From: a virus
Virus record (IMG/VR): IMGVR_UViG_3300011409_000003
Span: 1 to 56,330 of that record
DNA: 56,330 nt
Direction: 5' to 3' (one strand)
Positions 4,367 to 43,905 of the stretch are shown here, piece by piece (positions within the stretch are counted from its first letter, which is position 1; each line of letters begins with the position of its first letter). The notes under the pieces are model-generated. The model was not told the DNA's origin. It saw only the letters and a program-made list of their open reading frames with translations, and did not search any database. The position numbers and the translations under genes are program-made.

Positions 4367-4380
4367 GGGCGTATACTCTT
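4367..4380 (+). promoter_or_regulatory. Copy of the recurring promoter-like motif GGGCGTATACTCTT
   Basis: Lies in the divergent intergenic region 4297..4415, oriented toward the 4416 operon. Contains a -10-like TATACT. Confidence 0.55.
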
Positions 4381-4415
4381 TAGGTAGCCCCGTTTACAAC
4401 CTCCCGGGAACCGCA

Positions 4416-4709
4416 ATGAAGCTAGCGAACCTCGCCCATATGGCCTGTGGCCGTTGCCCCAACACGCTGCCTGAGGGTAACGCGCCCCGCTGGTTGCGCG
4501 CCACTGACCAGCCGCTGGCCGGCACGCGCATCGCCGTCTGCAACCCGTGCTACCGCTCCGCCAACGCGGCGTTGCGGCAGCCCACCCCGGCAAAGTGTGT
4601 ACCGGTTCGTGCTCAAGAGTTTCAACCGGCGCCACGCCCCGACGCCCTCGTGCCGACCCCCTCACACGGATACCCGGCCGCGCCGAGCGCGCGTCCTGCG
4701 GTCGCGTAG
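4416..4709 (+). CDS. Small zinc-ribbon-like protein
   Basis: Internal ATG at 4416 downstream of the motif; MKLANLAHMACGRCPNTL...CNPCY (two CxxC pairs). Confidence 0.5.
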   Translation: MKLANLAHMACGRCPNTLPEGNAPRWLRATDQPLAGTRIAVCNPCYRSANAALRQPTPAKCVPVRAQEFQPAPRPDALVPTPSHGYPAAPSARPAVA

Positions 4710-4715
4710 TCGTTT

Positions 4716-5003
4716 ATGCCTGACGCCATCATCTCAACCCTAATCGCCAAGGCCAAGGTCTTGGGCGGCCCCATCGCCGCCGCCCTCCTGCTGGGCCTCA
4801 CAGCCGGGTGGTACGCCCGCGGCGAGCGCACCACGGCGACCGCCCTCGCTGCGACCGTCGCCCGCCTCGATTCCAATACCGTGAAGCGGCCGGAGTTCAG
4901 CCTCGCGCTGGCCCGCTTAGAAGCCGTGGCGCTCCGCCAGGACAGCACGAACGCGCTGCTGCGCCGCTTCATCTGTCGGTCCCAGCCGACCATATGTCCT
5001 TGA
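4716..5003 (+). CDS. Small membrane protein
   Basis: 95 aa; hydrophobic segment GGPIAAALLLGLTAGWY; compact operon spacing. Confidence 0.45.
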   Translation: MPDAIISTLIAKAKVLGGPIAAALLLGLTAGWYARGERTTATALAATVARLDSNTVKRPEFSLALARLEAVALRQDSTNALLRRFICRSQPTICP

Positions 5004-5560
5004 CCCGTCTGCTCTCGTTCCTGCTCGTTGGCGCCGTTGCACTGCTCATCGGAGCGTTGGGCGCAGCTGCGCGGATCGATTGGCTGGAACGCGGACCTGA
5101 AAGAATCGTCGCGGCGCTCCCCGGCGTCGGTCCTGGCTGGCTCGACACGCTGACGCGCATCGCCGGCGATGTGACGATCGACACGGTCAACGCGACTGAG
5201 CTCGCGCACTACGGGCCGACGTTGCTCGGGCTGCACGAGCCGTTCCACCACATCGTCAGCGTTCAGACGCGTCTCACGAATTACATGCTCTTTATCCGCG
5301 CCGGGACGTGCGCTACCGGATGGGGCGGATACCAGCACCCGCTCACGGTCGCCACACCGTGGGGCGCCGTGGCGCATGAGTTCGGGCACCACTACGCGTT
5401 CGGGACGTCTGACGCAGGCTCCGAACGCTTCGCCGATCGGTTCGCGCGGGCGGTGCTGGCGCTGCGTGGCTGGGATGACGCAGACCCCGCCGACAAAGTC
5501 CTCACGCATCGCGTCCGCTACCTCCTGCTCAAGAGCTACTGGCCCACGGAGGCCCAATGA
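4994..5560 (+). CDS. Membrane-anchored HExxH zinc-metalloprotease-like protein
   Basis: Start moved to ATG 4994 (MSLTRLLSFLLVGAVALLIGALGAA, a TM segment); AHEFGHHYAF contains HExxH. Confidence 0.5.
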   Translation: MSLTRLLSFLLVGAVALLIGALGAAARIDWLERGPERIVAALPGVGPGWLDTLTRIAGDVTIDTVNATELAHYGPTLLGLHEPFHHIVSVQTRLTNYMLFIRAGTCATGWGGYQHPLTVATPWGAVAHEFGHHYAFGTSDAGSERFADRFARAVLALRGWDDADPADKVLTHRVRYLLLKSYWPTEAQ

Positions 5561-5865
5561 CTCGCTTCGCCTTCCTACTCGTCGCCCTGATCACCGCCTG
5601 TGCGCACGGCTCCATTCGCGTCCCTGCGCGAGCCGCTGACCCGGGCGCGCGGTTGGTGCGTGGCGTCTGGTACAACCCGAATCCCGAGGTGTGGCGCCAC
5701 AGCTATTGGTTCCGCGCCGACGTCGACATGGTGACGCCGATGCGCGTCGTCATCTCGAGCGATGAATCCGCCTGCATCATGGACATGGGCGTCGATGAGC
5801 CGCGGGAGGGCGAGTTCTACACTTGCCCGACCACGTGGCGCTATCCGCAGCGGCGCGGCCCGTGA
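5557..5865 (+). CDS. Putative lipoprotein
   Basis: ATGA overlap with the upstream gene; MTRFAFLLVALITAC lipobox-like signal. Confidence 0.5.
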   Translation: MTRFAFLLVALITACAHGSIRVPARAADPGARLVRGVWYNPNPEVWRHSYWFRADVDMVTPMRVVISSDESACIMDMGVDEPREGEFYTCPTTWRYPQRRGP

Positions 5866-6248
5866 ACACAGAACAGAAGCGGGCGTACGATAGGACCTAC
5901 TACCTTCGGAATCGCGAAAGGATACGCGAGCGAGAACGAAAATGGGCCGCCGCCAACCGTGACAAGACACGCGCAAAGGTTCGACGCTGGCGCTTCCGTA
6001 CCGTGTACGGCCTAACGATTGCGCAGTATCAGGAATTACTGGTTCGACAGGGCGGCGGTTGCGCGATTTGTGAGGAGAAAAAAAACAGAAGGGGTACGTA
6101 TCAACTCTGTGTTGACCACGATCACCAGACCGGAAAGGTGCGTGGTATCCTGTGCGACAGTTGTAACCGTGCGCTAGGATTCTTAGGCGATAATCCCTCT
6201 CTGCTGCGCCGGGCACTTTCTTATTTGGAAAGCGCGGAGTTCGTATGA
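5862..6248 (+). CDS. HNH endonuclease, endonuclease VII type
   Basis: GTGA overlap start; CAICEEKKNRRGTYQLCVDHDHQTGKVRGILCDSCN motif. Confidence 0.8.
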   Translation: MNTEQKRAYDRTYYLRNRERIRERERKWAAANRDKTRAKVRRWRFRTVYGLTIAQYQELLVRQGGGCAICEEKKNRRGTYQLCVDHDHQTGKVRGILCDSCNRALGFLGDNPSLLRRALSYLESAEFV

Positions 6249-6517
6249 CGGCGCCGCAGCGTTGGTCGAAACTCGCTTCCTTTCCGCTCACCAACGCGAT
6301 CGGCGTGGCCATGCTGGGCGCCTGGCTAGGCACCGGGCTCGTCGCCCTGTGCTTCGCCCTCGCGTCAACGCAGCTGCACCCGCTCGTGGTGCCGCTCGAA
6401 TGGTGGGACGCCCTGAAATGGTTCAGCGCGTATGCCTTTGCCCAGTTCGCGGCGAAGCGGGCTTCGCATGCCGATCTGTGGAAGCGGAACACCGATGCCG
6501 CACTGCCCCCGGTTTGA
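6245..6517 (+). CDS. Membrane protein
   Basis: ATGA overlap; two hydrophobic helices (AIGVAMLGAWLGTGLVALCFALA; FSAYAFAQFAA). Confidence 0.45.
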   Translation: MTAPQRWSKLASFPLTNAIGVAMLGAWLGTGLVALCFALASTQLHPLVVPLEWWDALKWFSAYAFAQFAAKRASHADLWKRNTDAALPPV

Positions 6518-6641
6518 TTGGGTTCTGTCCCGCTGTCTCGACTGCGGTGAACCACAACACCTCGTCATCGTCTATCCCTTCGTAGGCGACGCATACCCTG
6601 CCGGCCGCTGCCCAGACTGCGGCAAAGAGGAACCGCTGTGA
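6495..6641 (+). CDS. Small zinc-ribbon protein (start uncertain; 6468 also possible)
   Basis: RCLDCG ... RCPDCG CxxC pairs; overlaps the upstream ORF end. Confidence 0.4.
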   Translation: MPHCPRFDWVLSRCLDCGEPQHLVIVYPFVGDAYPAGRCPDCGKEEPL

Positions 6642-6829
6642 CCGATAGAATAGCGATCAAGCACGAGGGGACGACGTGGTACACAACCGGCACGCTCGAG
6701 GACGTGTGCGCGCGACTGAACGCCGGCGAGCCGATCGATGTGTGGGGCTTCAATCAGAATGGCGACCGCTGGGACGAGCGGGTCGTCCTCTACGGCCCGC
6801 CCGAGTTCGTCGTCACCGACAGCCCCTAG
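6638..6829 (+). CDS. Hypothetical protein
   Basis: GTGA overlap start; 63 aa; last gene before the convergent junction. Confidence 0.4.
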   Translation: MTDRIAIKHEGTTWYTTGTLEDVCARLNAGEPIDVWGFNQNGDRWDERVVLYGPPEFVVTDSP

Positions 6830-6840
6830 GACGCGAGTCC

Positions 6841-7059
6841 CTAGACGCGCTCGAAGAGATGGCGTTGGTACGTCATCCCGCACGTCATGCAGGTGGGACT
6901 CGCGCCCGAGAAGAAGGCGATCAGAATCCAGATCGGCAGCCAGAGCCCAAAAGTGACCAGTGACAACAGGAGGTGCAGCACGTGATTGGGCGCCGACACG
7001 AGGTGCGGCGTTTGCCTTCCACACGTCTTGCACGGCAGCATCTTCTGAACGTTCGACAT
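6841..7059 (-). CDS. Small zinc-ribbon plus transmembrane protein
   Basis: LPCKTCGRQTPH ... CMTCG flank the hydrophobic LLLSLVTFGLWLPIWILIAFF. Confidence 0.45.
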   Translation of the reverse strand: MSNVQKMLPCKTCGRQTPHLVSAPNHVLHLLLSLVTFGLWLPIWILIAFFSGASPTCMTCGMTYQRHLFERV

Positions 7060-8132
7060 CAGGCCTCCTTGGCCATTGGAGCGAGCACGAGGCCGCGCTC
7101 CCGTGAAATCTGCAAGCTAATATCCGGCCCCAGCTGCTTCAGTAGTCTATCGCGGTCCTCCGCGAGGAAGGCCGTTATCTCGTAAGCCTCATAAAGGAAG
7201 GTCACGTCCTTGACACCGTGACCGAGATATAGGATGCGGCGGGTCCGCGGTATCTGCGCCGTCTCCATCAGCCGTGTGAACGTCTTGCGCCCCTGGTAGG
7301 GACTGGCGCCAGCGACGCGGAGATCCTGCCGGAATACCTCTACCGTGACTTCGGGCCGCACCGGCGCGACAATGAGCGGGACCTTGCGGCCCTCGCTACC
7401 CCAGCGCCGCCCCAGCCGCTTCGTGCCGCGTATCAGGACGTGATCCGGCTCGACGCTCCACTCGCCGTAGAACTCAGTCGGTCCCATGCCAGTGCAGTAC
7501 ATCGCGCGCCAGATGCGATCCGACGCCGCGCGGCCCGCCTCAAGAAGTCTCTTGCTGACAACGCGCGCCTCCGCGACCGTAAGGCCCTTCACGCCGTTCT
7601 TGACTTCCTGCATCGGCGGGACGTCAGCGACGCTCGTTCGGAGCGGATGCCGCTTCCCGTACTTGTCGCGTACGAAGGCAAGGCACGCCTGCTTCGCGTA
7701 ATTGAACATACGCGGCGTGGCGCCCGTGACGCATTTCCGCCTGTACGTCTCTAGGAGCATGGGCAGATCAGACACCTTGGCGCGATGCCGTACCTGCGCA
7801 ATGAGCGTCGCCAGCGCGCCGCGGCAGGCGTTCTTGTGTCTTTCTGAGGCTTGGAAGGTCGCAATCCATTCGTCCTTGGCGCCCTCGAGCTCTTCCTCGC
7901 CTTCGGCCGGAAGGTCGTTCAGTTTGCCGCGGAGGTAGGCGATATAGAGATCCGTCATGAGGCGACGATCCTTCATCACGGCTTCCACGTGGTGCCGGTT
8001 CTCGGGCTGGTCCCATAGTAGGCGGAGCATCGCCTCCATCGCGGCCGCGTTCTGGCGTACGGCAACGCCGCTCGCCTTCTTCACACGAACCGCGTTGCCG
8101 TCGAACCGGATATCAATGTCTAGCGAGCGCAT
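7059..8132 (-). CDS. Divergent tyrosine recombinase / integrase-like protein
   Basis: C-terminal pattern IRGTKRLGRRWG ... YQGRKTFTRLM ... LGHGVKDVTFLYEAY resembles the K, HxxR and H...Y boxes. The box I position reads CTGMGPTEF, with no Arg. Confidence 0.5.
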   Translation of the reverse strand: MRSLDIDIRFDGNAVRVKKASGVAVRQNAAAMEAMLRLLWDQPENRHHVEAVMKDRRLMTDLYIAYLRGKLNDLPAEGEEELEGAKDEWIATFQASERHKNACRGALATLIAQVRHRAKVSDLPMLLETYRRKCVTGATPRMFNYAKQACLAFVRDKYGKRHPLRTSVADVPPMQEVKNGVKGLTVAEARVVSKRLLEAGRAASDRIWRAMYCTGMGPTEFYGEWSVEPDHVLIRGTKRLGRRWGSEGRKVPLIVAPVRPEVTVEVFRQDLRVAGASPYQGRKTFTRLMETAQIPRTRRILYLGHGVKDVTFLYEAYEITAFLAEDRDRLLKQLGPDISLQISRERGLVLAPMAKEA

Positions 8133-8342: not shown

Positions 8343-8374
8343 GTACGATACTATGCGATACGCCTACTGACAAG
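8343..8374 (-). promoter_or_regulatory. Weaker promoter-like elements (GGCGTATCGCAT and CGTATACACT on the minus strand)
   Basis: Intergenic 8314..8388, oriented toward the 8313 operon; partial match to the recurring motif. Confidence 0.3.
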
Positions 8375-8388: not shown

Positions 8389-8562
8389 TTATGCGACCTT
8401 AGCTTGCTTTGCCATCATTGCGAGGACGTGGGCCACGAGGTAGCGGCCGGGCAGGAAGGTGGTGTAGTGGCGCTCCACGGTGCGCTCGGAAACGCGCAGC
8501 CAGCGCGCCACTTCCGACGTCGTCAGGACCTCATTCTGGGCCGGCGGTTTGGGGCGCCTCAT
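8389..8562 (-). CDS. Helix-turn-helix DNA-binding protein (excisionase/MerR-like)
   Basis: ATGA-coupled start at 8562; LTTSEVARWLRVSERTVERH. Confidence 0.55.
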   Translation of the reverse strand: MRRPKPPAQNEVLTTSEVARWLRVSERTVERHYTTFLPGRYLVAHVLAMMAKQAKVA

Positions 8563-9227
8563 GCTGCGAGGTACCAGCGCATCGGGCGTTCGTCGCCGCC
8601 GCGCACGCCGGGAATCTTCCCGTACCGGAGCCAAGCCGGGAGGGCGCTGCGCGCGAGTGAGTCGTTATGGTAGTGGTGTTTGATCCGGTCAACGAGCTGC
8701 CGCGTCGTCAGACCCGCCGGCGTTTCCTTTAGGGCGCGGTGAATCTCGGCGATCGTCGCCTTGAATGGGGACCAGAACTTACCCTCGTTGTTGCCAGCGG
8801 CCGCGTAGGTACGCGTCTCATCACACAGGCGGTCGCGCAACCAATACTTCGTCGGCGTCTGGCGCCATAGTTTCGGCGCAAGCTCCTCGCGCACTTCGGT
8901 CTCTCCAGAGTAACGGCACGCGACCTCAATCAGACCGATACCCCAGTCCTGCAGAACCGCCCGCGCCGTGAAACGTTCGGTCCGGTTGCGGTAGCGAGAT
9001 GGCTCCGGAGTGGCAACGCTCACGCGATTGGCGTAGCCCAACCAATTCCGGGCCTGTCCAAGTACGCTGAGACCAAGCGACATCTTCGTCTCGATGACGT
9101 AGAGCAGCGGCCCTTTGACCGCGACAATGTCGGCACGCGGACCGGGTCCGCCAACTTCTTGGTGAACGTCCCAGCCGAGGTCGCGCAAATAGGCGACCAC
9201 CGCAGCGGCCAGTTCGGTTTCCTTCAT
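8559..9227 (-). CDS. PD-(D/E)XK nuclease, Hjc/MmcB-like (possible Holliday junction resolvase)
   Basis: ELAAAVVAYLRDLGWDV...RADIVAVKGPLLYVIETKMS gives a D...ExK arrangement; replication-module context. Confidence 0.55.
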   Translation of the reverse strand: MKETELAAAVVAYLRDLGWDVHQEVGGPGPRADIVAVKGPLLYVIETKMSLGLSVLGQARNWLGYANRVSVATPEPSRYRNRTERFTARAVLQDWGIGLIEVACRYSGETEVREELAPKLWRQTPTKYWLRDRLCDETRTYAAAGNNEGKFWSPFKATIAEIHRALKETPAGLTTRQLVDRIKHHYHNDSLARSALPAWLRYGKIPGVRGGDERPMRWYLAA

Positions 9228-15630: not shown

Positions 15631-15638
15631 GAGACCGT

Positions 15639-26807: not shown

Positions 26808-26990
26808 GACGACGTCCTCAAACAGCGTGACGAGGCGCGGGTCGCAGGTGGCGAGCCGGGAGAGCGAGCGGGCACTGAAGCGGGGCAGGGGCGTTACTCG
26901 CTAACGGCCGACGTGGTCGGCTGTGGGGTGGAACCGCATGCTACCTCGATTGTCTTGGGGAGTTCGGCCAGACACCGGCCTGCGTGTGCG

Positions 26991-27004
26991 GAGAGTATAC
27001 GCCC
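26991..27004 (-). promoter_or_regulatory. Copy of the recurring promoter-like motif (minus strand GGGCGTATACTCTC)
   Basis: In the 210-nt gap between the SLT and M15 genes, oriented toward M15. Confidence 0.55.
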
Positions 27005-27017
27005 GTTTACAGTGTGG

Positions 27018-28470: not shown

Positions 28471-28889
28471 GCCGCGTACTCCCGCACCTTGATTTCATCC
28501 GTGGTCTCGCCGCGCATCAGCGCGCCCATGAAGTCTGCGCGATGCTCCAACTCGTCTCCGGCGTCAGCCGTGTAGTCGACCAGCGTGTAGCCGTTCGGGT
28601 AGTGCGCCTTGTAGGCCGCGTGCTTCACCGAGGTCTGCAGGTCATGCCGTGCGAAGGCGCGTGAGCTCGAGACGTGCGAGGTCAGCCACGTCCCATCTTC
28701 CGCGAGCGCGTACCCATGAATCCAGGGCGCAGAGCCTTCGGCCACGAGAAAGATTTTAGGGAGAGGGGTCGCCGGAGACCCGCCAGTGCCCACCACCGAC
28801 TGGACAGGATCGACCACCGCGCCCGCGTTGAGCCGGGAGGCGTCGTTCGTCCCGACCGACACGACGGGTCCGTCGTATGTCGGGCTCAT
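28467..28889 (-). CDS. Hypothetical protein
   Basis: 140 aa; ATGA-coupled to the sigma factor gene. Confidence 0.4.
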   Translation of the reverse strand: MSPTYDGPVVSVGTNDASRLNAGAVVDPVQSVVGTGGSPATPLPKIFLVAEGSAPWIHGYALAEDGTWLTSHVSSSRAFARHDLQTSVKHAAYKAHYPNGYTLVDYTADAGDELEHRADFMGALMRGETTDEIKVREYAA

Positions 28890-29593
28890 GCCGCCGCCTT
28901 CGGCGCGAGGAGCGTCGACTTAAGCGAGGCGAGCGCGCGATCCAACAGACACTGTACCCGCTGCTTCGATACGCTCAGGACCGCGCCAATCTCCGCGAGA
29001 TCGTGGGGCGCCATCCCCGCGAGCCCGAACCGCATCCGCACCACCGTCGCTTCCCGTGCCGGCAGCGTGTCTACGAGACCAGCCAACCGTTCCGCATCGA
29101 TTCCGTCGAGGATGCCATCTTCGGGAGAATCGACGACGAAGGAGGCGCGATCGGACGGCGCACTGCGGTCAATCGCGATATACTGCTGCGCCTTGACCGA
29201 CTCCCGGCCGCGCTCGGATTCACCCTTCCGTGGCTCGCGAGGCAGGCGAATCGCGCCGCCGTGCCGCCGCACGTAGACCACGAGGTCGCGATGAATGCAG
29301 CGACGCGCATAGGCCGCGAAATGCACCGACTTGCTGGGATCGAAGCGCCGCGCGCCTTCGAGGAACGCGGCGGTCGCAACCGCCATCAGATCGTCGTACT
29401 CGAGGTCGCCCTGCTTGTAGCGCCGCGCCTGAATGGCGCAGAAGCGGAGGTTGCCGGCGACGATGCGACTCTCGAGCAGCGTCTTCTGCTCTTCAGTCGT
29501 GGCTTCTCGCAGCTGCCGCACGAGCGCGAGCGTCTGGTCGCGGCCGAGAGCGGGCGGATTGGGATCGCGACCGAGAGCGACGGGCATTTTCAT
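28886..29593 (-). CDS. Sigma-70 family RNA polymerase sigma factor
   Basis: Region 2: NLRFCAIQARRY...DDLMAVATAAFLEGARRFDPSKSVHFAAYARRCI. Region 4 HTH: ATVVRMRFGL...LAEIGAVLSVSKQRVQCLLDRAL. Confidence 0.85.
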   Translation of the reverse strand: MKMPVALGRDPNPPALGRDQTLALVRQLREATTEEQKTLLESRIVAGNLRFCAIQARRYKQGDLEYDDLMAVATAAFLEGARRFDPSKSVHFAAYARRCIHRDLVVYVRRHGGAIRLPREPRKGESERGRESVKAQQYIAIDRSAPSDRASFVVDSPEDGILDGIDAERLAGLVDTLPAREATVVRMRFGLAGMAPHDLAEIGAVLSVSKQRVQCLLDRALASLKSTLLAPKAAA

Positions 29594-32100: not shown

Positions 32101-32127
32101 AAGACAATACGCCCGAGTGATACGCCC
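32101..32127 (-). promoter_or_regulatory. Two tandem copies of the promoter-like motif (minus strand GGGCGTATCACTC and GGGCGTATTGTCTT)
   Basis: Oriented toward ATG 32091; implies a very short leader. Confidence 0.5.
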
Positions 32128-32195
32128 GTCAACGGTTGTACGGTTTCAGGCCACGAGTTTTAGTCAGTAGGCCGACAGTTGGTTCGCGAGTCGTG

Positions 32196-32337
32196 GAGTC
32201 GTTCCCGTGGTGCGGGAATCGGTGGGAATTACGGCATTACACGTAGAAGATTTGAGTCATTCCCGCTATAAGTAGGAATGACTCATTCACTCGTGTCTAC
32301 GGGGTAGTCAAGAAAATGGGAACGACTGGAACGAGTG
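32196..32337. repeat. Iteron cluster GGAAYGASTS (five copies, both orientations)
   Basis: gagtcgttcc 32196, gagtcattcc 32254, ggaatgactc 32275 (10-bp inverted pair with an 11-nt spacer), ggaacgactg 32319, ggaacgagtg 32328; plus gggaat x2 at 32214 and 32224. Confidence 0.7.
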
Positions 32338-32721
32338 GAAAGAAGAACGGGTCCGAGCGAGGGCGATGCGTGTTTGCTCAAGACCCGTTTGGTGTGGTGG
32401 ACACCTGATTTGTTGCCAGTCAGCCGACTTCTTGCTTGGACCCCTATGTTTCTTCGTGCTCTTCAGCGGTAGCTTCGCTCGAGCACGCGCAATCTTCCTG
32501 CGCAACGTCGGACTGCTGAGCCCTAGCGCTTCATTCGCCTGCTTGCGTAACTCTGCCGACACCTCGTTGAGGCCGTACTTCTTCGCCAGAGTGACAGCAG
32601 GAATGAGTAAACGCCGCGCGACCTCAGCCTCTGAGATATCGTTGTCCCTCGCTAACTCTGTGATCGGTGTTCGTTCCTTCTCCTCACGTAGTCGAATGAG
32701 GAACGGCTTACGCTCAGTCAT
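32308..32721 (-). CDS. Ribbon-helix-helix (CopG/Arc-like) regulator candidate with basic C-terminal extension
   Basis: AGGAG 5 nt before ATG 32721; KPFLIRLREEKERTPITELARDNDISEAEVARRLL fits a beta-helix-helix pattern. The 3' end runs into the iterons, so the true stop and functional length are uncertain. Confidence 0.5.
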   Translation of the reverse strand: MTERKPFLIRLREEKERTPITELARDNDISEAEVARRLLIPAVTLAKKYGLNEVSAELRKQANEALGLSSPTLRRKIARARAKLPLKSTKKHRGPSKKSADWQQIRCPPHQTGLEQTRIALARTRSSFHSFQSFPFS

Positions 32722-32790
32722 ATGCTCCTAACTCAATTCTGGGAGTAACAACGGCACGCCCTCGCGCCAGGTCTCCGTTACGACACGCGG

Positions 32791-32819: not shown

Positions 32820-32836
32820 GTGTCACGCTGCGATTC

Positions 32837-32850
32837 GGGCGTATTCTCTT
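32837..32850 (+). promoter_or_regulatory. Copy of the promoter-like motif GGGCGTATTCTCTT (rightward, toward terL)
   Basis: Back to back with the leftward sigma-70-like promoter; about 340 nt upstream of terL. Confidence 0.55.
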
Positions 32851-35049: not shown

Positions 35050-35053
35050 TCGC

Positions 35054-35068
35054 GGGCGTATTCTCTCC
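35054..35068 (+). promoter_or_regulatory. Copy of the promoter-like motif GGGCGTATTCTCTCC
   Basis: Intergenic, 41 nt upstream of the portal start. Confidence 0.55.
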
Positions 35069-36845: not shown

Positions 36846-36847
36846 CC

Positions 36848-37180
36848 GTGGCGATCTACGGCGCGGAAATCCGGAACACGGTTGCCGCCGCAATCGCGGC
36901 GAAGCTCGGCGGCAGTCGCTTGTTCCTGCTGTCGGAGCAGGGTCGCGTCCTGGCGATTCTCCCGATGCCCGGGTTCACGAGCGAGACCCCCGGGGTCATC
37001 GAGACCGGGAAGTTTGACCGGGTGACGGTGCTCGCCTCCGGTGACCCGACGCGGTATGAAATCCGGCCGGCGGCGGGGTTCCCGCTGCTGTCCGGTGCCG
37101 GCGCCGAATTGAAGATCAACCCGGCCTCGCTCATCGAGGGCGGACTTGTCTACGTCGATTCATTTGTTCTCACAGTGTAA
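36848..37180 (+). CDS. Hypothetical virion-module protein
   Basis: GTG start 2 nt after the portal stop; 110 aa. Confidence 0.4.
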   Translation: MAIYGAEIRNTVAAAIAAKLGGSRLFLLSEQGRVLAILPMPGFTSETPGVIETGKFDRVTVLASGDPTRYEIRPAAGFPLLSGAGAELKINPASLIEGGLVYVDSFVLTV

Positions 37181-37189
37181 GGGGAAGGT

Positions 37190-37615
37190 ATGAGCAAGGG
37201 TAACACGTACGAGGATGATATCCTCAAGTTGATCTTCAATGCGACGGCAATCGCGGACCTGGCCGAAAACGACGCCACCTCGCCCGCCACGACGCTGACT
37301 GTTGCGCTGCACACCGCCGACCCCGGCGAGGCCGGGACGCAGGCGACCAGTGAGACCGCTTACACGGGGTATGCCCGCGTGGCCGTCGCGCGCACGACCG
37401 GCGGCTGGACCGTCGCGAGCGGCTCAGTCTCGCCTGTCGCGAATATCGACTTCGCCGAGTGTACCGCCTCCCCTGGCGGGGCTATCACGCATTTCAGTGT
37501 GGGCACGGGCGTCGCCAATAAGTTGTTGTATAAGGGCACCGTGACGCCGAACATCACGATGGCGGTTGGGGTGATTCCGCGGCTCAAGACCACCAGCACA
37601 ATCACAGAGGACTAA
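37190..37615 (+). CDS. Hypothetical structural protein (fibre/collar-associated family pattern)
   Basis: GGGGAAGG before the ATG; ILKLIFNATA...ETAYTGYARVAV...NIDFAECTASPGGAITHFSVG. Confidence 0.4.
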   Translation: MSKGNTYEDDILKLIFNATAIADLAENDATSPATTLTVALHTADPGEAGTQATSETAYTGYARVAVARTTGGWTVASGSVSPVANIDFAECTASPGGAITHFSVGTGVANKLLYKGTVTPNITMAVGVIPRLKTTSTITED

Positions 37616-37617
37616 CC

Positions 37618-38061
37618 ATGGCCAGATACTCAGCGGGAGTTCGCACCGGAGCGGGCTCTACCACGCTTCCCATTATGAGCCTGTACAACATCGCCAGCAT
37701 CATCGGCGTCGTGCGCGAGATCGGCGTGTTTAACACCACGACGACGGCGGTCGCGCTCATGCTCGCTCGTCTTTCTACCGCCGGTACGCAGGGCGCGGCC
37801 CTCGTAGAGTCTCGCCATCGCCGGAGTGGTCCGGCGGCCTCCTGCACGGCGTTCACCACGCACTCGGGCGCCCCGACCATTCTGGAAACCGATCTAGGCT
37901 ACCGCACTTCGCTCGGCGCGGCCATCGGGGCGGGCGTGATCTGGACGTTCGGAGATGCAGGACTCGAAGTCGGCGACGCTGGCACGGGCAACGGGCTCGG
38001 CATCATCGTCGCGACCGGCACCGGCCAAATCTGCGACGCCTACATCGTCTGGGACGAGTAA
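37618..38061 (+). CDS. Hypothetical structural protein
   Basis: 147 aa; Gly/Ala/Thr-rich; tight spacing. Confidence 0.4.
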   Translation: MARYSAGVRTGAGSTTLPIMSLYNIASIIGVVREIGVFNTTTTAVALMLARLSTAGTQGAALVESRHRRSGPAASCTAFTTHSGAPTILETDLGYRTSLGAAIGAGVIWTFGDAGLEVGDAGTGNGLGIIVATGTGQICDAYIVWDE

Positions 38062-38064
38062 GCC

Positions 38065-39351
38065 GTGGCGGTCCGCGCGGTACGGTCGGCCGTCGCGGGG
38101 CCGAGCTTCTGGCGGCGTAGTGCGGGTGGGGTGCTCGTAGCCGATCCTACCCAGCTCCCCGAAGCGACGAGTCCTGGGCAGACGCGGAGCGGGACCTACG
38201 GCCGTAGTCTCTCGGCGGGGCAGACCTACGTCGATCCCGTCTCGGGTGTGACGGTGCTTAAGGTCACGTCGTCCACCGTCCCAATCTCGAACTCGGGCGT
38301 GAGTCACGGTTATGCGACGAGCGGCCCTCGGTGTTCGCAGCCGTGGGTGGACGGGGGCGACGGGCATACGAAGTACACGCTGTGCCTCGACTTCATCGGC
38401 TACTTCGTTGACATCGACTACGAGGACTTCCAGGCCGAGAACTTTCGAGACGCTGGTGCTGCGGCGGGGCCGGGCGATGCGGGAATGGCCTTCTCATTGC
38501 ATCCCTCCACACCACAGCGCTCCTATGCCCTCAACAGCGGCATCATTCGCGCCTACAGCACAATCACGGGGTCGGAGATTACGCCGACTGGCTTTCCGTT
38601 TGATCCGGCTGGTGCTGGGTCGCTTAACTGGCTTCAGACCCAGCTCAATGATACTTGGTTCGCGTACATGTCCGGCACGGAATATCGTGGCTACAAGCCA
38701 AGCACGGGCACCGAACGTGCGATGACACAGGCGCGCTCGGGATTCACGCACGACGAGTTACACATCGACCTACTCAACCCCTACGTCTACATGTCTGTTG
38801 ACGACGATGCAGGGGCGAACGCACCGTGGAACCTCGAAGCGGATACGTTTGACGCCTCGCCGGACTCGCAGACTGTCAATGGGCCTATGTCCGACGATCA
38901 CTGCGCGCCGGGACGAGGCTACGTGGTCGGGACGGCGCATTTCGCTTCGCAGGGTGGGGGCTGTTACGTCTACCGAGCCGATACCGACGTAGCGGTGCAG
39001 ATCATCGAGGGATCGGCAAACTACCACGACGCCGCAAGCGACTTCTACACCAATGCGAACTGGTGCCGTGATTTACGACCAGAGATGAGCGTCCCAGCGG
39101 ACCTGTGGCACCTCACGTCGAAGGAGAACCAGGACGACGCGGATGCGAAGGTGCGCCAGTACGCGATGGCGCTGGTCAAGAATGACGGAAGTTCGGTGCG
39201 GATCGTGGGACATCACGACTCCAGCGGGTCGGTCTATGACCGTTTTTCTAAAGCCATGCTCTCGCCGGATGGGAAGCTAGTGATCTTCACCAGCGACATG
39301 AACGGCTCCAGCCGGTGGGACGTGTTCGTCGCGAAGATGCCGGTGAGCTGA
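38065..39351 (+). CDS. Beta-propeller protein (TolB/PD40-like repeat at C-terminus; depolymerase-like role is speculative)
   Basis: MLSPDGKLVIFTSDMNGSSRWDVFVAKMP is a PD40-type blade motif; 428 aa. Confidence 0.45.
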   Translation: MAVRAVRSAVAGPSFWRRSAGGVLVADPTQLPEATSPGQTRSGTYGRSLSAGQTYVDPVSGVTVLKVTSSTVPISNSGVSHGYATSGPRCSQPWVDGGDGHTKYTLCLDFIGYFVDIDYEDFQAENFRDAGAAAGPGDAGMAFSLHPSTPQRSYALNSGIIRAYSTITGSEITPTGFPFDPAGAGSLNWLQTQLNDTWFAYMSGTEYRGYKPSTGTERAMTQARSGFTHDELHIDLLNPYVYMSVDDDAGANAPWNLEADTFDASPDSQTVNGPMSDDHCAPGRGYVVGTAHFASQGGGCYVYRADTDVAVQIIEGSANYHDAASDFYTNANWCRDLRPEMSVPADLWHLTSKENQDDADAKVRQYAMALVKNDGSSVRIVGHHDSSGSVYDRFSKAMLSPDGKLVIFTSDMNGSSRWDVFVAKMPVS

Positions 39352-39962
39352 TGTCCACCGACAATTTCAACCGAGCCGATAGCGCGGACCGGGGGGTGAA
39401 CTGGACGAGTGTCTCGGGATTCCGAACCCGTATCGACACCAATGAGTCGGAGGGCAACAACGCAGGTGACCCGGCGCTGGAATACTATAACCCCGACACG
39501 CCGGGACCCGCGCAAGGCGCCAAAATCATCCTCCGCGCGCCGATTGAAACCACAGCGGGCGGGGGACAAGGCCCGGCAATCCGCATCCAAACAGGCGCGG
39601 ATACCGGCTACATTGTCAGGTGCAATACGGTTGCCGCGGAGCGATTCCAGGTCTATCGGCGCATCGCGGGCGCGGATGGCACGGCGATCATGGGCTATAC
39701 CGGTGCGGCCCCAACTGCTGGCGACCTCGTGGACCTCCGGGTCAATGACCAGTTCGACCTGGAGTTGTACATCAACGCTGTGCAGCGCGCCACGTTCACG
39801 GATACGGATGCGAACAAGATCGCTTCGGGTTGTTACGGCGACTTCGGCCTCATCATAAACGAGTTCATTCGCTGGGACGATTGGGAGGGGTATGAAGTTG
39901 GCGAGCCGCCCGTCCCTGCGCCTGAAGTGCTCCGCACCGTGCGGTCGAGCCTGAGGTGGTAA
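39351..39962 (+). CDS. LamG/concanavalin-like jelly-roll protein
   Basis: ATG 39351 overlaps the upstream TGA; DNFNRADSADRGVNWT opening typical of LamG-like phage fibre-associated proteins. Confidence 0.45.
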   Translation: MSTDNFNRADSADRGVNWTSVSGFRTRIDTNESEGNNAGDPALEYYNPDTPGPAQGAKIILRAPIETTAGGGQGPAIRIQTGADTGYIVRCNTVAAERFQVYRRIAGADGTAIMGYTGAAPTAGDLVDLRVNDQFDLELYINAVQRATFTDTDANKIASGCYGDFGLIINEFIRWDDWEGYEVGEPPVPAPEVLRTVRSSLRW

Positions 39963-40682
39963 ATGGCCACGGTCTCTGAACTAGGCGAAACCTGGAACAC
40001 CACGGCAGGCAACAAGACGGTCGTCGCCACCCCAGCGGTGAACGACCTGATCGTCATCGTGGCGGGCATGTCGGGCTGGGCCTCGGGCGACGACATCACG
40101 CTCGCGGACAACAACGCCGACGGGCTCGGGGCCTACACGAAGTTTGGGACCGCAACCGTTCCGCTTTCCACTGGTGGCGGCACGGCCTGCGCGCTGTGGT
40201 TCTTCGTGCGGAATGCGCTCATCGGTTCGGCTACCTCCACCACGTTTACGGCCACAATTAGCGGCGACACGGGCGGCGGCCTCACCGCGATGAAGGTGAC
40301 GGGCATGGTGCGCGTGGGCGTGAACGCCGTGCGGCAGGCCATCGGTCAGTCTACACAGACCGAAAACCCACCGAGCATCGCCTTCGGTGTCGCGACACTC
40401 GCGAATTACCCACTCATCGTCGCGGTGATGGGCGAAGACGCCCCACTCGCGCTAACACCGCCCACCGGGTTTACCGAAACGACCGAGGGCAGTTGGGCCA
40501 CGCCAACGACGGGTATTAACGTCGCGTTTCTCTCCGCTGGAAGCACCGGCTCCACCTACGCCTGGAGCGCTGGTGCGGTAACGGACCACAACGAAATCGC
40601 CGTCGAACTCGACAGCTCCGTCCCCCAGGAACCGCCGTCGCTGTTCATGGCGCCATATAGACATCAGCCAAGACGGATATGA
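39963..40682 (+). CDS. Hypothetical structural protein
   Basis: ATG directly after the upstream TAA; 239 aa. Confidence 0.4.
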   Translation: MATVSELGETWNTTAGNKTVVATPAVNDLIVIVAGMSGWASGDDITLADNNADGLGAYTKFGTATVPLSTGGGTACALWFFVRNALIGSATSTTFTATISGDTGGGLTAMKVTGMVRVGVNAVRQAIGQSTQTENPPSIAFGVATLANYPLIVAVMGEDAPLALTPPTGFTETTEGSWATPTTGINVAFLSAGSTGSTYAWSAGAVTDHNEIAVELDSSVPQEPPSLFMAPYRHQPRRI

Positions 40683-41911
40683 GCAAAGTCCGGTACGGCG
40701 TTCCCTCGCACTCGCCCGCTGCGCGTCGACGTGTCTCGACGATTACGGGTGAGCTGTCGCCCCCGGCAGGGACGACCATCGTTGAAGCCGATGGGGCAGC
40801 GTCAGGTGTGGCGACCGTTCTCAGCGTGGCGGTCGCCATCTGGAATGTGGTCACAGCGGCGGCGGGCATCGCTGCCTCGACCGTCGTTGGCGCGGCGCTC
40901 TGGCTCGCCGTCGCCACGGCTCCCGGGGTGGCGACGGGTGACGCCGCCAGCGCGAGTGTCCTACAGGGGGTCGGCGCAAGTAGTGGTGTGGCCGTTGCTG
41001 CCGCCGATGGTGAGGCTGTCACGGCACCAGCGCAAATCCCCAACCTGCTCATGGCTGGCACGACGGGCACGGTTCGTCGCGCGGTGGCTGCACATTCTCC
41101 CGTCCATCTACAGGATGCGCCGCGCGTCGTGTCGAGCGTCCTCATTGGGGCGATCACCGAGGCGGAGGCGACTGCATCGGGCACTGCTGCCGGCGCCGCT
41201 GTTGGGTCCACTGTTGTCACCGCTGAGGCGGCGAGCGCAGGCGTAGCGGTTGGGTCGGCCGAGGGCGCGGACGCGGCCTCCGGGGGCCAAGGCGTTGCGA
41301 GCGGGACCTCGACGGCATCTGCTGTCGGCGTTGCTACTGTCGGCGTGCAGGTGAGCAGTGCGGGCACGGCAACCGTGCTCGCGTCAAGCGCCACGGTCAC
41401 GGTGGCTGCGGGCGCCTCAGTCGGGACGGCGGCCGCACAAGCGGATGGCGTGGACGCCGCCGCAGGGTCCAATGCTCTCGCGTCTGGGACCGCGCAGGCG
41501 TCCGCTGTTAGCGGCGTCACGGCGGGGTCGGAAGCGAGCGCGTCGGGGGTCGCGACCGTTGTCGGCGTTGCGGACGCGCCGCCCTCGGTGGAAAGTGGTT
41601 CGGGGGGTCGCGCACGCTTCCGCCCGTCGCGCCGGTTAGCACGCGTCACGCTTCAGCTCGAGATGCCGTCGCCTACCGTGTTGGTGCGCGGGTGGGCGAT
41701 CGGTCCCGCGCACGCCTCGGTTGCGATTCGCTGGCCTACACCGCTTGTTGCTGTGACGGGCCGAAGTATCCCCGCCTTTCGCGTTGGCGTTCGGATCGAG
41801 CTCGGTCTCGTGTTGCGCGGTGAGGTACGCGTTCGTACAGAGCCGCCAGAGTTCGACCTGAGCGACGACGCGTTGCTGTTCCTCGCGGACCAGTTCTTCG
41901 CCAATGGCTAG
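40679..41911 (+). CDS. Ala/Gly/Val/Ser/Thr-rich repeat protein with globular C-terminal domain
   Basis: ATGA-coupled start; about 300 aa of degenerate ASGVATV / AAGxAVG-type repeats, then RFRPSRRLARVTLQLEM...FLADQFFANG. Confidence 0.5.
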   Translation: MSKVRYGVPSHSPAARRRVSTITGELSPPAGTTIVEADGAASGVATVLSVAVAIWNVVTAAAGIAASTVVGAALWLAVATAPGVATGDAASASVLQGVGASSGVAVAAADGEAVTAPAQIPNLLMAGTTGTVRRAVAAHSPVHLQDAPRVVSSVLIGAITEAEATASGTAAGAAVGSTVVTAEAASAGVAVGSAEGADAASGGQGVASGTSTASAVGVATVGVQVSSAGTATVLASSATVTVAAGASVGTAAAQADGVDAAAGSNALASGTAQASAVSGVTAGSEASASGVATVVGVADAPPSVESGSGGRARFRPSRRLARVTLQLEMPSPTVLVRGWAIGPAHASVAIRWPTPLVAVTGRSIPAFRVGVRIELGLVLRGEVRVRTEPPEFDLSDDALLFLADQFFANG

Positions 41912-43853
41912 GCGCACGGCGCCGGCGTCGTACCGTCTGGCGCAGCGCCAGGCGCGCGCGATCGAGCGCGATCTCTTGTCACGTGTGGCCGGCCAGATCG
42001 ACCGCGCCCTGCTGCAATCGACACAGCGGCTCGAGGCCTTGCTGCTCCGGCTCCCAGGCACGACGCCGGAGGCCCGCCTTCGCGCCCTTCGCGCCTCGGC
42101 CGACGTGTTCCGGTTCCAGCGCCAGCGGCTCGTGCAGCAGATGGAACGCGCGCTCGCGGCGGGACGGAGGACGAGTTACGCCGACGTCATCGCGGCTTGG
42201 CAGGACGCGGCCAAGCGGGCCGCTACCGCGGTGGGGCTCCCGAATGCGGCGCTCGGTGCCGTCCTAACGCCACGGACCACGCTGCTCGCCGTCTATGAGA
42301 ACACGGGTGGCGCGAAGCTGTTTCGCTCACTTCTGTCGCGGGCCGCCGCGGACGGATTCCGTGCCGTGGACGATATCCTGCGGGCTGGGATCCTTGAAGG
42401 GAAGTCGTTTGAGGTGTTGGCGCGCGAACTCCGGCCGTTTGTGAAGGGCGCGGTTGAGGGGGGCGCGGGTGGCGGGGCGACTGCCGCTGCGGCGTTCCGG
42501 ACGGTGCGGTTCAATGCGACCCGGATCGCGTATTCCGAGATTCACAACGCCAGGGCCGAGGCCGAGGTGCAGCACTTCGCCGAGGATCCCTTAATCGAGG
42601 CGGTGGCCTGGCGGCTCTCCCCGGACCGAGGCACGAATCGCGGACCGGACGCCTGCGATGCGCTGGCCGAGAACGACTTCTATGGGCTCGGCCCGGGGGT
42701 GTATCCCGTGGACGCCGTGCCGCTTCCGCCACACCCGTTCGACAGGTCGCTCGCGGCGTGGACGCCAGTGCTGACCGAGACGGGATGGCGTCGTGTGGAT
42801 CAGGTGCGTGTGGGGGAGCGCGTGCTGACACACCGAGGGCGCTGGTGTGCGGTTAGCGAGAGCTTGGCGGGGCGGGTTACGGGCGGGTGGATGCGGTTGC
42901 GTACTGCGGACGGGCGACTGCTTGAACTGACAGACGACCATCCGGTGCTCTTGGCGTCAGGCCGCTGGACGCTCGCGGGCAACTTGCTGGCGGGTGACTT
43001 CCTCGTAGCAACTCGTGATCTGCCCGACCACGTTGGCGAGCCAGGCGTTGGTCCCGGGGCGGCACGTACTCCAGAGATGCTGGCGGTCGAAGACGTGAAG
43101 CGTCCATCCCGCAGCTTGAAGCGCGGCGGCTTTCTTGGCGTCCTGGCGGCGCTTCTTCGCTGTGCGATGCCAGCCGCCGTGTATCTCAAACGCGAGCCGC
43201 AGCGTCGGCACAGCAAGGTCGATGTTGAAGCGCTTGAAGGGGTACAGCGCTTCGGCGGGAACGCCGTTGCCGCGAAGGCCGTCAAGCACGGCGCGTTCGT
43301 AGGCGCTGAGGCGTTGGTTGCCGTAGACGGTGCGGGCGCGCTTGCAACATATGGCTTCGGTTTGAGTGCTGCCGGTGAACAAGCGGCGGCACAGCTTGGC
43401 CCGCCGGCGCCGCTCGGCGGGCGTCATGCGCTCCCCGACCAGGGCGTTGGCTTCGTGTTGTCCGCGCCGGGGGATGCCCCATTCAGCCAACCGAGCGCGA
43501 ATGGTGCCACGGTCCACGGCACAACGCCGCGCCACCTCGGCTTCGCTGAGGCGCTCGTTGACATACCAGTGAGTGACTTGGTTCCGGTCCAATTGGTGGC
43601 GGTTCATACACTGAGAGTATACGCCCGTCGATACTGTTTGACCGTTGCGAATGACAAGTCTTTTGTCGCGGGCGGTCTTGTTGTCCACAACTGCGAGCGC
43701 GTGCCTATAACGCGCCCGCTCGCGCGCGCGAATGACCCGAAGCCGTCGCCAGGGCGCCAGTCCGGCAAGGTAGAGGTGCCCCGTGGTGGGCAGTTGAGCG
43801 CGGCGGCGCTTCAATCCGTGGAGCAAAGTACCCGGGCGGCGCTGACCCGGTAG
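41904..43853 (+). CDS. SPP1 gp7 / Mu F-like head morphogenesis protein interrupted by an intein
   Basis: RFNATRIAYSEIHNARAEAE...PDACDALA...PLPPHPFDR | intein | CERVPI; excising 42747..43691 restores HPFDRC, which aligns to the family HPxCRC motif. Confidence 0.75.
   Translation: MARRTAPASYRLAQRQARAIERDLLSRVAGQIDRALLQSTQRLEALLLRLPGTTPEARLRALRASADVFRFQRQRLVQQMERALAAGRRTSYADVIAAWQDAAKRAATAVGLPNAALGAVLTPRTTLLAVYENTGGAKLFRSLLSRAAADGFRAVDDILRAGILEGKSFEVLARELRPFVKGAVEGGAGGGATAAAAFRTVRFNATRIAYSEIHNARAEAEVQHFAEDPLIEAVAWRLSPDRGTNRGPDACDALAENDFYGLGPGVYPVDAVPLPPHPFDRSLAAWTPVLTETGWRRVDQVRVGERVLTHRGRWCAVSESLAGRVTGGWMRLRTADGRLLELTDDHPVLLASGRWTLAGNLLAGDFLVATRDLPDHVGEPGVGPGAARTPEMLAVEDVKRPSRSLKRGGFLGVLAALLRCAMPAAVYLKREPQRRHSKVDVEALEGVQRFGGNAVAAKAVKHGAFVGAEALVAVDGAGALATYGFGLSAAGEQAAAQLGPPAPLGGRHALPDQGVGFVLSAPGDAPFSQPSANGATVHGTTPRHLGFAEALVDIPVSDLVPVQLVAVHTLRVYARRYCLTVANDKSFVAGGLVVHNCERVPITRPLARANDPKPSPGRQSGKVEVPRGGQLSAAALQSVEQSTRAALTR
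42957..43607 (-). CDS. Antisense-encoded homing-endonuclease-like protein inside the intein (HTH plus Vsr/DUF559-like PD-(D/E)XK)
   Basis: ATG 43607: MNRHQLDRNQ...LSEAEVARRCAVDRGTIRARLAEWGI (HTH)...YPFKRFNIDLAVPTLRLAFEIHGGWH...AAGWTLHVF (DUF559-like core). The promoter-like motif sits immediately upstream. Confidence 0.6.
   Translation of the reverse strand: MNRHQLDRNQVTHWYVNERLSEAEVARRCAVDRGTIRARLAEWGIPRRGQHEANALVGERMTPAERRRRAKLCRRLFTGSTQTEAICCKRARTVYGNQRLSAYERAVLDGLRGNGVPAEALYPFKRFNIDLAVPTLRLAFEIHGGWHRTAKKRRQDAKKAAALQAAGWTLHVFDRQHLWSTCRPGTNAWLANVVGQITSCYEEVTRQQVARERPAA
43613..43626 (-). promoter_or_regulatory. Copy of the promoter-like motif (minus strand GGGCGTATACTCTC) inside the intein
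   Basis: TATACT ends 8 nt before antisense ATG 43607, implying a leaderless transcript. Confidence 0.5.
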
Positions 43854-43890
43854 TCAGAGGCAGGCCCCACCGGCGGCGTTTTCACCTCGG

Positions 43891-43905
43891 CGGCGTATTC
43901 TCTCC
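43891..43905 (+). promoter_or_regulatory. Copy of the promoter-like motif CGGCGTATTCTCTCC
   Basis: Intergenic 43854..44003, upstream of the scaffold and coat genes. Confidence 0.5.

Follow-up and report, generated by a model that had tools for sequence, protein, structure and literature searches.

The question raised by the virus record IMGVR_UViG_3300011409_000003 is which sigma factor reads a short, G+C-rich motif that recurs at the heads of its gene blocks, and whether the phage itself supplies the specificity. The whole stretch of 56,330 nucleotides (64% G+C) is referred to here as the window. The element, C-GGGCG-TATWCT, is 12 bp long and would span about −18 to −7, and on its anatomy and placement it is very probably the −10 element of a phage promoter class. 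One copy forms part of an early promoter that also has a −35 hexamer, and six copies have none; the chances that this −35-less class is read by a sigma factor encoded in the same genome are put at about even.

Allowing up to two mismatches, GGGCGTATWCTCT is matched nine times in the window against 1.5 matches expected, and none of 100 shuffled sequences reached nine. Unbiased counting gives GGGCGTAT as the top intergenic 8-mer, with six intergenic and three 'coding' occurrences, one of the latter being the copy within an intein and the other two a single tail-gene site counted twice through a 123-bp terminal repeat. Sites from related phages alone were used to train a position weight matrix (PWM), which returned seven sites of 17.7–24.6 bits in the window, the next match scoring 11.2 bits; triplet shuffles gave on average 0.48 and at most three matches at or above 14 bits. 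Six of the seven sites are intergenic, though intergenic DNA makes up 5.7% of the window (binomial ∼2e-7), and the coding exception is the intein copy. Each of the seven points toward the gene that follows it and stands at the head of a gene block, with none inside transcription units. An earlier, sequence-only reading of the window had listed eight strong copies oriented with their downstream genes, and all eight are present at the positions and on the strands that it gave, so that the observation itself is confirmed. The seven PWM sites are the following, with the predicted +1 set 7 nt after the hexamer and the starts predicted from sequence alone:

4366..4377, plus strand: motif CGGGCGTATACT, 23.7 bits (the 4367 site); intergenic, no −35, predicted +1 at ∼4384
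26994..27005, minus strand: motif CGGGCGTATACT, 24.6 bits (the 27004 or 'mid' site); predicted +1 at ∼26987
32104..32115, minus strand: motif CGGGCGTATTGT, 21.1 bits (the 32114 site), putative extended −10 of the early promoter; predicted +1 at ∼32097
32836..32847, plus strand: motif CGGGCGTATTCT, 22.8 bits (the 32837 site), putative late (terminase) promoter; predicted +1 at ∼32854
35053..35064, plus strand: motif CGGGCGTATTCT, 23.6 bits (the 35054 site), ahead of the portal gene (35109); predicted +1 at ∼35071
43616..43627, minus strand: motif CGGGCGTATACT, 24.6 bits (the 43626 site), antisense in the intein-coding region; predicted +1 at ∼43609
43890..43901, plus strand: motif GCGGCGTATTCT with one mismatch, 17.7 bits (the 43891 site); predicted +1 at ∼43908

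The 4367 copy heads small rightward genes that extend to ∼6829. The 'mid' site lies 13 nt past the stop codon of an SLT-like (lytic transglycosylase) gene and heads a leftward block of endolysin-like, nucleotide-metabolism and replication genes; ATGACC was considered as its −35 and rejected, being mostly the TGA stop codon of the upstream gene. The early copy, also flagged by a generic sigma-70 scan, heads the leftward early operon that contains the phage sigma gene, the portal gene product is phrog_145, and the 43891 copy precedes the gene at 44004 and the major head protein gene (phrog_283). K-mer analysis of the window gave no second recurrent motif; CCCGTTTACA and ACGACGTC were rejected as candidates, as flank overlap or a coding-frequent palindrome. 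Matches to a generic sigma-70 consensus across the window were overall not above chance.

Related phages came to light via the major head protein (L001), the sigma factor (L007/L008, L009, L050, and L052) and TerL plus portal (L015 and L016); identity to the window proteins is 52–75% for sigma, TerL and portal. Their motif copies fall into classes with the sites of the window:

Early operon class: window 32114; orthologs L007 9001, L009 2235, L015 1840, L016 1379
TerL ('late') class: window 32837; orthologs L007 7862, L009 1358, L015 2713, L016 2460
Portal class: window 35054; orthologs L007 5704, L015 4758, L016 4435
'Mid' block class: window 27004; orthologs L007 12653, L009 7312, L050 3044, L052 3311
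Head-block ('scaf') class: window 43891; ortholog L001 3878, which reads GGGCGTAATCT

Orthologous sites in the four classes of four or five members have 90–100% identity over the 12-nt core, reaching 100% in the 'mid' and late classes, against mostly 26–56% in their flanks (44% for the late upstream flank, 26–32% for the portal flanks); the early upstream flank, with 72%, is the exception. The head-block pair, which has only two members, is weaker at 75% core identity. In L007, GGGCGTAT is independently the top intergenic 8-mer (six intergenic occurrences and one coding). The motif was not found in distant high-G+C relatives (L002-L006, L035, L040, and L042), and is therefore confined to the close clade. 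A site in L012, GGGCGTATAAT, was set aside because it overlaps a stop codon and is possibly due to chance.

The anatomy of the element was read from 25 sites in seven phages. The consensus begins with C (21/25) and G (23/25), followed by GGCG and then by a hexamer TAT-W-N-T, in which the third T is present in 24/25 sites and the fifth position is C in 19, G in five and A in one. T(−12), A(−11) and T(−7) are invariant and variation is limited to hexamer positions 3–5, a pattern of conservation that, as judged from the alignment, is that of a sigma-70-family −10 element. Two further sites, in the 'mid' class of L050 and L052, fit the hexamer pattern with C at position 5. A purine lies 7 nt downstream of the hexamer in 20/25 sites, and no column upstream of −18 exceeds 0.5 bit. 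The early class has an additional element: TTGAC(G/A) is found exactly 17 bp from TAT(A/T)GT in all five phages, and it is because of this spacing from a conserved −35 that the early hexamer can be taken to act as a −10. Position 5 of the hexamer separates the two groups of sites, being G in 5/5 early sites and C in 19/20 non-early sites, and the alignment revealed no shared −35 at the six non-early sites of the window.

These features are consistent with the −10-centered promoter class that had been proposed from the sequence, given the conserved core, the fixed positions 1, 2, and 6, the −35 at 17 bp in one class and the purine 7 nt downstream of the hexamer. The accompanying statement that there is no conserved −35 holds for the six non-early window sites and fails at the early site (TTGACG, 17 bp), so that the single architecture originally envisaged gives way to two, early (−35, TATWGT) and the remainder (no −35, TATWCT). 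One of the eight listed copies, GGGCGTATCACTC at 32115..32127, is not an independent occurrence; it is the spacer of the early promoter, starting at the last base of TTGACG. The early promoter thus comprises, besides the 32114 copy:

32127..32132, minus strand: −35 hexamer TTGACG of the putative early promoter, exactly 17 bp from TATTGT
32116..32127, minus strand: spacer of the putative early promoter, GGGCGTATCACT(C), below the PWM listing threshold

Within this spacer GGCGTA is kept in 5/5 phages and the hexamer that follows is degenerate (TATCAC in the window, TAGCGT in L015). Of the sequence said to be conserved on both sides of the core, GGGCG is upheld across the family and CTCTYC only in part, since the corresponding positions in L007 read CTAGCG, CTATCC, and CTAAAC; the tail appears to be a feature of the window genome more than of the family.

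Placement of the motif upstream of nearly every operon had also been claimed, and this was an overstatement, as at least three other predicted transcription units (the helix-turn-helix (HTH) gene, 8132, and 4296) carry candidates of −35/−10 type and no motif:

8345..8373, minus strand: candidate TTGTCA-17-TATCGT, ahead of gene 7059-8132; not among the PWM matches of at least 7 bits
32791..32819, minus strand: candidate host-type promoter of the HTH gene, TTGCAT-17-TATCTA, inferred from the alignment
4352..4324, minus strand: candidate TTGCGC-17-TAGCTT, seen in the window only

The first of these had been regarded as a weaker relative of the motif (8343..8374); it gives no PWM match and is better described as a separate sigma-70-type candidate. 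For the HTH gene, the five-phage alignment has TTGC(A/G)T and a −10-like hexamer at 17–18 bp in every member. None of the three candidates contains GGGCG, and this block is therefore not a general requirement of host-type promoters in the phage. The 4367 and 32837 motifs are each preceded by a GCAAG(G/T) box. These boxes were considered as upstream elements of the motif and dropped; they are the reverse complement of two of the candidate −35 hexamers, and are better accounted for as the TTGC.. −35 of divergent leftward promoters.

As an extended −10 the element is non-standard. Positions −15/−14 are invariantly G and C, so that the TG of the extended −10 class is absent, in agreement with the generic scan, and the lack of a recognizable −35 that goes with this class is seen at six of the seven window sites. 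With respect to extracytoplasmic function (ECF, group 4) promoters, CGTA is present, but there is neither an AAC-type nor any other shared −35.

A candidate reader is encoded in the early operon, between its −35-containing promoter and the first −35-less site that points the same way:

28886..29593, minus strand: phage sigma gene (235 aa), with Pfam domains Sigma70_r2 and Sigma70_r4; phrog_351

Both Pfam domains (PF04542 and PF04545) score above cut-off, as does TIGR02937 (63 bits vs. a cut-off of 42.9), and PF00140 and PF04539, which represent regions 1.2 and 3 of group 1 sigmas, gave no match to the protein. The AlphaFold model contains a confident sigma2 (residues 18–111) and a confident sigma4 (167–234) joined by a disordered linker, with no sigma3, and the length of the linker differs among relatives. 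The family profile aligns best to SigA/RpoD structures (E 2e-24), and in that alignment the W-W dyad of region 2.3 is replaced by an invariant R-C. The tryptophan dyad is typical of group 1 sigmas, and other residues in its place are associated with weaker melting and tighter specificity (PMC10216364, where the sigma32 promoter sequence is also treated). The phage protein does not qualify as a group 1 (housekeeping) sigma. In region 4.2 it reads VSKQRVQ, compared with VTRERIRQ in Escherichia coli sigma-70. Its nearest cellular homologs are 29–31% identical and have neighborhoods typical of alternative sigmas, one of them following dnaK-dnaJ-merR and another following STAS and HATPase_c_2 genes. 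The former is named 'RNA polymerase primary sigma factor' in its source, and its best NCBIfam matches are partial ones to the SigB, RpoD, and RpoS models, with RpoH lower, so that only its gene context suggests that this homolog is an alternative sigma.

Near-invariant promoters are typical of alternative sigmas, and group 3 sigmas use G+C-rich −10 extensions (sigma32 CCCCATNT, sigma28 GCCGATAA, and SigB/F GGGTAT). The near-invariance of the 12-mer, the G+C-rich extension fused to its hexamer and the lack of any other recurrent motif that could serve the phage sigma are the grounds for regarding the −35-less sites as alternative-sigma promoters. The presence of the sigma gene implies use of the host core enzyme, which would transcribe from the motif promoters. 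It is proposed that the unmodified host housekeeping holoenzyme reads the composite early promoter (32132..32104, minus strand) via its −35 and −10, and also uses the HTH-gene promoter and perhaps the two other −35-containing candidates. The early promoter would drive the leftward early operon, including the phage sigma gene, and the phage sigma would then send host core to the six −35-less TATWCT sites (27004 and 43626 on the minus strand; 4367, 32837, 35054, and 43891 on the plus strand), with transcription starting at the purine ∼7 nt after the hexamer. Its targets would comprise the lysis/replication, packaging, head and small-gene blocks together with an antisense endonuclease in the intein, the one gene that could not be co-transcribed with others. 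This order, from host sigma to phage sigma to motif promoters, is the best model of the temporal program.

The balance of evidence tilts toward the phage sigma as reader of the −35-less class, but several considerations count against this assignment. The early promoter, which an unmodified host enzyme must necessarily use, carries the full GGGCG in 5/5 phages, and a host sigma that favored GGGCG would explain all sites with one factor. The phage protein has two domains and lacks the region 3.0 helix with which housekeeping sigmas read extended −10 DNA, leaving no obvious way for it to read −17 to −13; a conserved Arg-rich segment after region 2.4 is a guess at how it might. The helix-turn-helix of its region 4 is well conserved, yet the six sites share no visible −35. 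The C/G difference between the classes rests on few evolutionary events, orthologous sites not being independent of one another, and finding sigma and motif together in relatives does not tell one reader from the other, since host types are probably shared as well. Promoter activity and transcription starts are themselves predictions.

Several of these points favor the most serious alternative, an unlikely one on balance, in which the host housekeeping sigma reads every copy and GGGCG is a form of extended −10 peculiar to the host, with which no −35 is needed; the targets of the phage sigma would then lie elsewhere, or it would replace the host sigma with the same specificity. TATACT, TATTCT, and TATTGT all fit the housekeeping −10 pattern, and housekeeping sigmas have a region 3 that contacts DNA just upstream of the −10. 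There is also a precedent in the Thermus phage P23-45, whose middle and late promoters are of the −35-less, extended −10 type and are read by host sigma A after gp39 displaces sigma region 4 (PMC3950348). The phage promoters described here resemble those of P23-45 in lacking a −35, in combining a −10 with adjacent upstream bases and in standing beside a −35/−10 early class, an arrangement of two architectures that would allow a temporal switch. They differ in that TG at −15/−14, the defining feature of such promoters, is replaced by G and C within a GGGCG block preceded by C at −18, in that the phage has a sigma of its own, and in that no factor like gp39 or AsiA was identified. Housekeeping promoters are normally degenerate, whereas the 12-mer is nearly invariant, and position 5 of the hexamer, weakly read by housekeeping sigmas, is the very position at which 19/20 non-early sites have C. 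Reading by the host sigma is further disfavored by the three −35/−10 candidates without GGGCG and by the conserved phage sigma, which would be left without a recurrent target motif in the k-mer analysis. The bacterial DNA surrounding the nearest cellular sigma homologs (39 kb) contained no PWM match, in a test of very low power that is much too weak to dismiss a host consensus.

Improbable, by a wide margin more so than reading by the host sigma, is that the GGGCGTAT part serves mainly to bind a phage protein such as the HTH protein encoded at 32308-32721, acting as an operator or activator site over ordinary −10 hexamers. The motif is indeed asymmetric, repeated and oriented with transcription, the partial copy GGCGTA occurs in the early spacer of 5/5 phages, with the similar AGGCGTATC in the spacer of the 8373 candidate, and the highly conserved HTH protein is encoded between divergent promoters. 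Fixation of hexamer positions 1, 2, and 6 with freedom at 3–5 is, however, a pattern of sigma recognition, and GGGCG abuts the hexamer at −17 to −13, where bound polymerase itself contacts DNA. A separate conserved palindrome beside the HTH gene is a better operator candidate. The stoperators of cluster A mycobacteriophages offer a comparison: they too are asymmetric 13–14-bp motifs, repeated around the genome and oriented with transcription, with one copy overlapping the early promoter. A genome has 20–35 stoperators, placed within transcription units and bound by the immunity repressor of a temperate phage. Unlike stoperators, the motif has only seven copies, all at gene-block heads and none within transcription units, has a −10 anatomy and is found without a lysogeny module, domain searches of the window proteins having detected no integrase or CI-type repressor and searches of 185,579 species genomes no prophage relative. 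A promoter for a phage-encoded single-subunit (T7-like) or other non-canonical RNA polymerase, which the phage-wide conservation of a 12–15 nt motif upstream of gene blocks could recall, is hardly credible given the −10 anatomy, the −35 at 17-bp spacing at one site, a sigma gene that implies use of the host core enzyme, and the lack of any RNA polymerase domain in the large proteins (Pfam and PHROG scans and precomputed Pfam tables), the leftover unknowns of which belong to the tail module.

If the phage sigma is the reader, the system can be compared with several that employ dedicated sigma factors. T4 late promoters, TATAAATA, are read by gp55, a minimal phage sigma. As in T4, the promoter is a short, highly conserved −10-only element and the proposed reader a truncated, phage-encoded protein of the sigma family acting on host core; unlike gp55, which is region-2-like only and depends on gp33 together with the sliding clamp, the sigma described here keeps region 4, and the motif is G+C-rich upstream of the hexamer and has no known co-activator. 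In the SPO1 cascade, host sigma A serves early genes, gp28 middle genes and gp33/34 late genes (PMC13401047). The proposal here is similar in that an early phage sigma gene would be transcribed by the host holoenzyme and its product would redirect core to a distinct class of phage promoters. SPO1 middle and late promoters have −35 and −10 elements of their own, whereas the window has no shared −35, one phage sigma and one motif class. With the group 3 sigmas there are common features in the G+C-rich block on the upstream side of an A/T-rich −10 core, the near-consensus conservation and the absence of a W-W dyad, and the nearest cellular relatives of the phage sigma stand in RpoH-like and SigB/F-like gene contexts. 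Those sigmas possess region 3 and need a specific −35, whereas the phage sigma has no region 3 and its putative sites no detectable shared −35.

The position of the early promoter and of the intein copy would have consequences for translation. A +1 placed 7 nt past the hexamer would leave leaders of 6 nt before the ATG at 32091 and 2 nt before that at 43607, making near-leaderless translation plausible at both. An ATG at +4 to +7 of the early promoter is kept in 4/5 phages. In the window and in L007 it is the only start that retains a conserved N-terminal GRPxxRxAVL segment, and is fused in frame to the first early gene. In L009 and L015 it opens an upstream open reading frame (ORF) of 17–18 codons (MMRARNTATRLQRPMAH and MRKRNAAARTQCLTGRGC), located at ∼2255-2308 in L009 and on the minus strand downstream of 1840 in L015, and the conserved protein begins some 56–60 nt later.

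The intein copy was described at the outset as directly preceding an antisense endonuclease ORF, and this is what is found, the 43626 motif (minus strand) lying 19 nt upstream of the ATG:

42957..43607, minus strand: antisense endonuclease-like ORF (216 aa), inside gene 41904-43853 and predicted to be served by the 43626 copy

GC3 (G+C content at the third codon position) of the antisense ORF is 0.78, and that of the sense frame falls there to ∼0.67, so that the central part of the intein appears to code on the antisense strand. The product has weak Pfam matches to REase_MTES_1575 and DUF559 (Vsr/DUF559-type) and weak PHROG matches to HNH endonuclease; a homing endonuclease lying antisense within an intein would be unusual. 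The surrounding gene (41904-43853, plus strand) encodes a head-morphogenesis protein (phrog_1657) with an intein of ∼314 residues at about aa 283-596, and its ortholog in L001 is intein-less, with the equivalent of aa 1-282 joined directly to 597-648. Five free-standing genes of homing-endonuclease type are also present (5823-6248, 18426-18827, 47707-48273, 52336-52575, and 54204-54836), three of them Endonuclease VII and two HNH. These are co-oriented with their neighbors and none (0/5) has the motif, whereas the antisense gene does, which supports a need of the latter for a promoter of its own. In L007 an inserted HNH-like gene (8552-8902) has its own motif copy at 8494.

The region between the early and late promoters contains a small gene missed by Prodigal and a conserved block:

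32308..32721, minus strand: small HTH protein gene, divergent from the putative late promoter
32741..32776, no strand assigned: nearly invariant 36-nt block in the five-phage alignment, with the palindrome GGCGCG-N4-CGCGCC, imperfect in the window

The HTH protein is 69–76% identical to the products of L009:1430-1777 and L007:7920-8273, and tblastn also detects it in L015 and L016. Its domain matches, to HTH and Sigma70_r4_2, are weak. Conservation greater than that of the sigma, together with the divergent orientation to the late promoter, makes it a candidate regulator. The 36-nt block, whose palindrome reads GGCGCG-AGGG-CGCGCC, lies between the start of the HTH gene and the late promoter, centered ∼93 nt upstream of the predicted late start, and was also flagged as a hairpin; it could be an operator or a 5′ untranslated region hairpin of the HTH mRNA.

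Downstream of the late promoter, 334 nt of non-coding DNA (32854-33187) precede TerL (33188), and a leader of 330–400 nt is present in all five phages. Its primary sequence is poorly conserved, apart from a box common to the phages (cttgccc..aatcgtggcagg) and a C-run/G-run hairpin found in 4/5 of them (33108-33125 in the window). The five-phage alignment contains no conserved reading frame and no evident small-terminase gene in the leader, which may be a packaging or attenuation signal. A perfect 16-nt tandem duplication (TCTTCTCGAGGAATAG twice, 32847-32878) overlaps the predicted late start in the window and is absent from relatives. The leader predicted for the 'mid' site also contains a structure:

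26966..26980, minus strand: hairpin GGCC-GGTGTCT-GGCC in the putative 'mid' leader, conserved in five phages

This hairpin (family form GGCC-GGTGTYW-GGCC) lies 10–25 nt into the predicted transcript and has a compensatory GACC/GGTC change in L050 and a longer stem in L052.

The first and last 123 bp of the window (1-123 and 56208-56330) form an exact direct repeat, giving a unit of 56,207 bp, and the window is a complete genome, circular or terminally redundant; a tail-region protein of 997 aa spans the repeat junction (54833..56207 plus 1..1619). The gene map, built from GC3 bias, Prodigal calls and Pfam/PHROG domain searches, consists of two main arms. The leftward arm runs from 32091 down to ∼6841 and encodes early small genes, the sigma gene, SLT- and endolysin-like genes, nucleotide-metabolism genes, a sliding clamp, a primase-helicase, two methylases and a DNA polymerase A. 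The rightward arm extends from 33188 through TerL, portal, the intein-bearing head-morphogenesis protein, the major head protein and tail genes, and wraps to 3153. Small blocks occupy 3134-4296 (minus strand) and ∼4416-6829 (plus strand). Within the leftward arm, an 855-aa fusion of a helicase C-terminal domain and an N6/N4 DNA methylase domain (11492-14059, minus strand) adjoins a C5 cytosine methylase of 563 aa (14056-15747, minus strand), and the pair (11492-15747) may be an anti-restriction or DNA-modification module. Directly after the major head protein gene is a G+C-rich hairpin with a 14-bp stem and a T-run (46014-46048), likely a terminator or attenuator between head and tail genes. 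Rfam and tRNA scans of the window returned nothing.

A DNA-level search detected no close relatives among GenBank phages, and protein-level matches to cultured phages were limited to TerL and sigma, at 23–28% identity, so that there are no mapped promoters to borrow. IMG/VR searches with the phage sigma, as a single sequence and as an alignment, found nothing, and one with the early-promoter DNA pattern returned only two contigs already known; a metagenome scan with the sigma alignment gave five short contigs only. Scans of a genome collection of 185,579 species with HTH and TerL alignments gave no relative, and hence neither a prophage nor a host label. A 19.8-kb part of the window (36541-56330) is 100% identical to contig L048 from another run (SRR6262248), and one phage genotype thus recurs across samples. 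The host is possibly a member of the Gemmatimonadota, for which there are two hints, namely that one sigma-homolog contig was binned in a Gemmatimonadales metagenome-assembled genome and that one of the three nearest cellular sigma matches (P0017) carries a Gemmatimonadota label; a literature search on Gemmatimonadota phage sigma factors gave nothing relevant.

Phage-specific promoter classes and sigma cascades are textbook matter, and the present system does not represent a new principle. A bolder proposal, tentatively advanced and with the odds somewhat against it, is that the two-domain sigma with its R-C dyad and the −35-independent 12-bp CGGGCGTATWCT are a previously undescribed pair, in which a G+C-rich duplex extension would be read without a region 3.0 helix, and that the composite early promoter would mark a hand-over from host to phage sigma or a feedback of the sigma on its own operon. 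Were this true, −10-only recognition would take a new form here, and the pair would be a compact orthogonal tool for expression in high-G+C bacteria. Should the more limited assignment of the −35-less class to the phage sigma hold, a defined pair of a 235-residue sigma and a 12-bp promoter would bear on minimal sigma recognition in the absence of a −35 and region 3, and could serve as an orthogonal expression module; the transcription program of an uncultured lineage, with one host-type early promoter, one sigma and a −35-less set of promoters, would then be readable from sequence.

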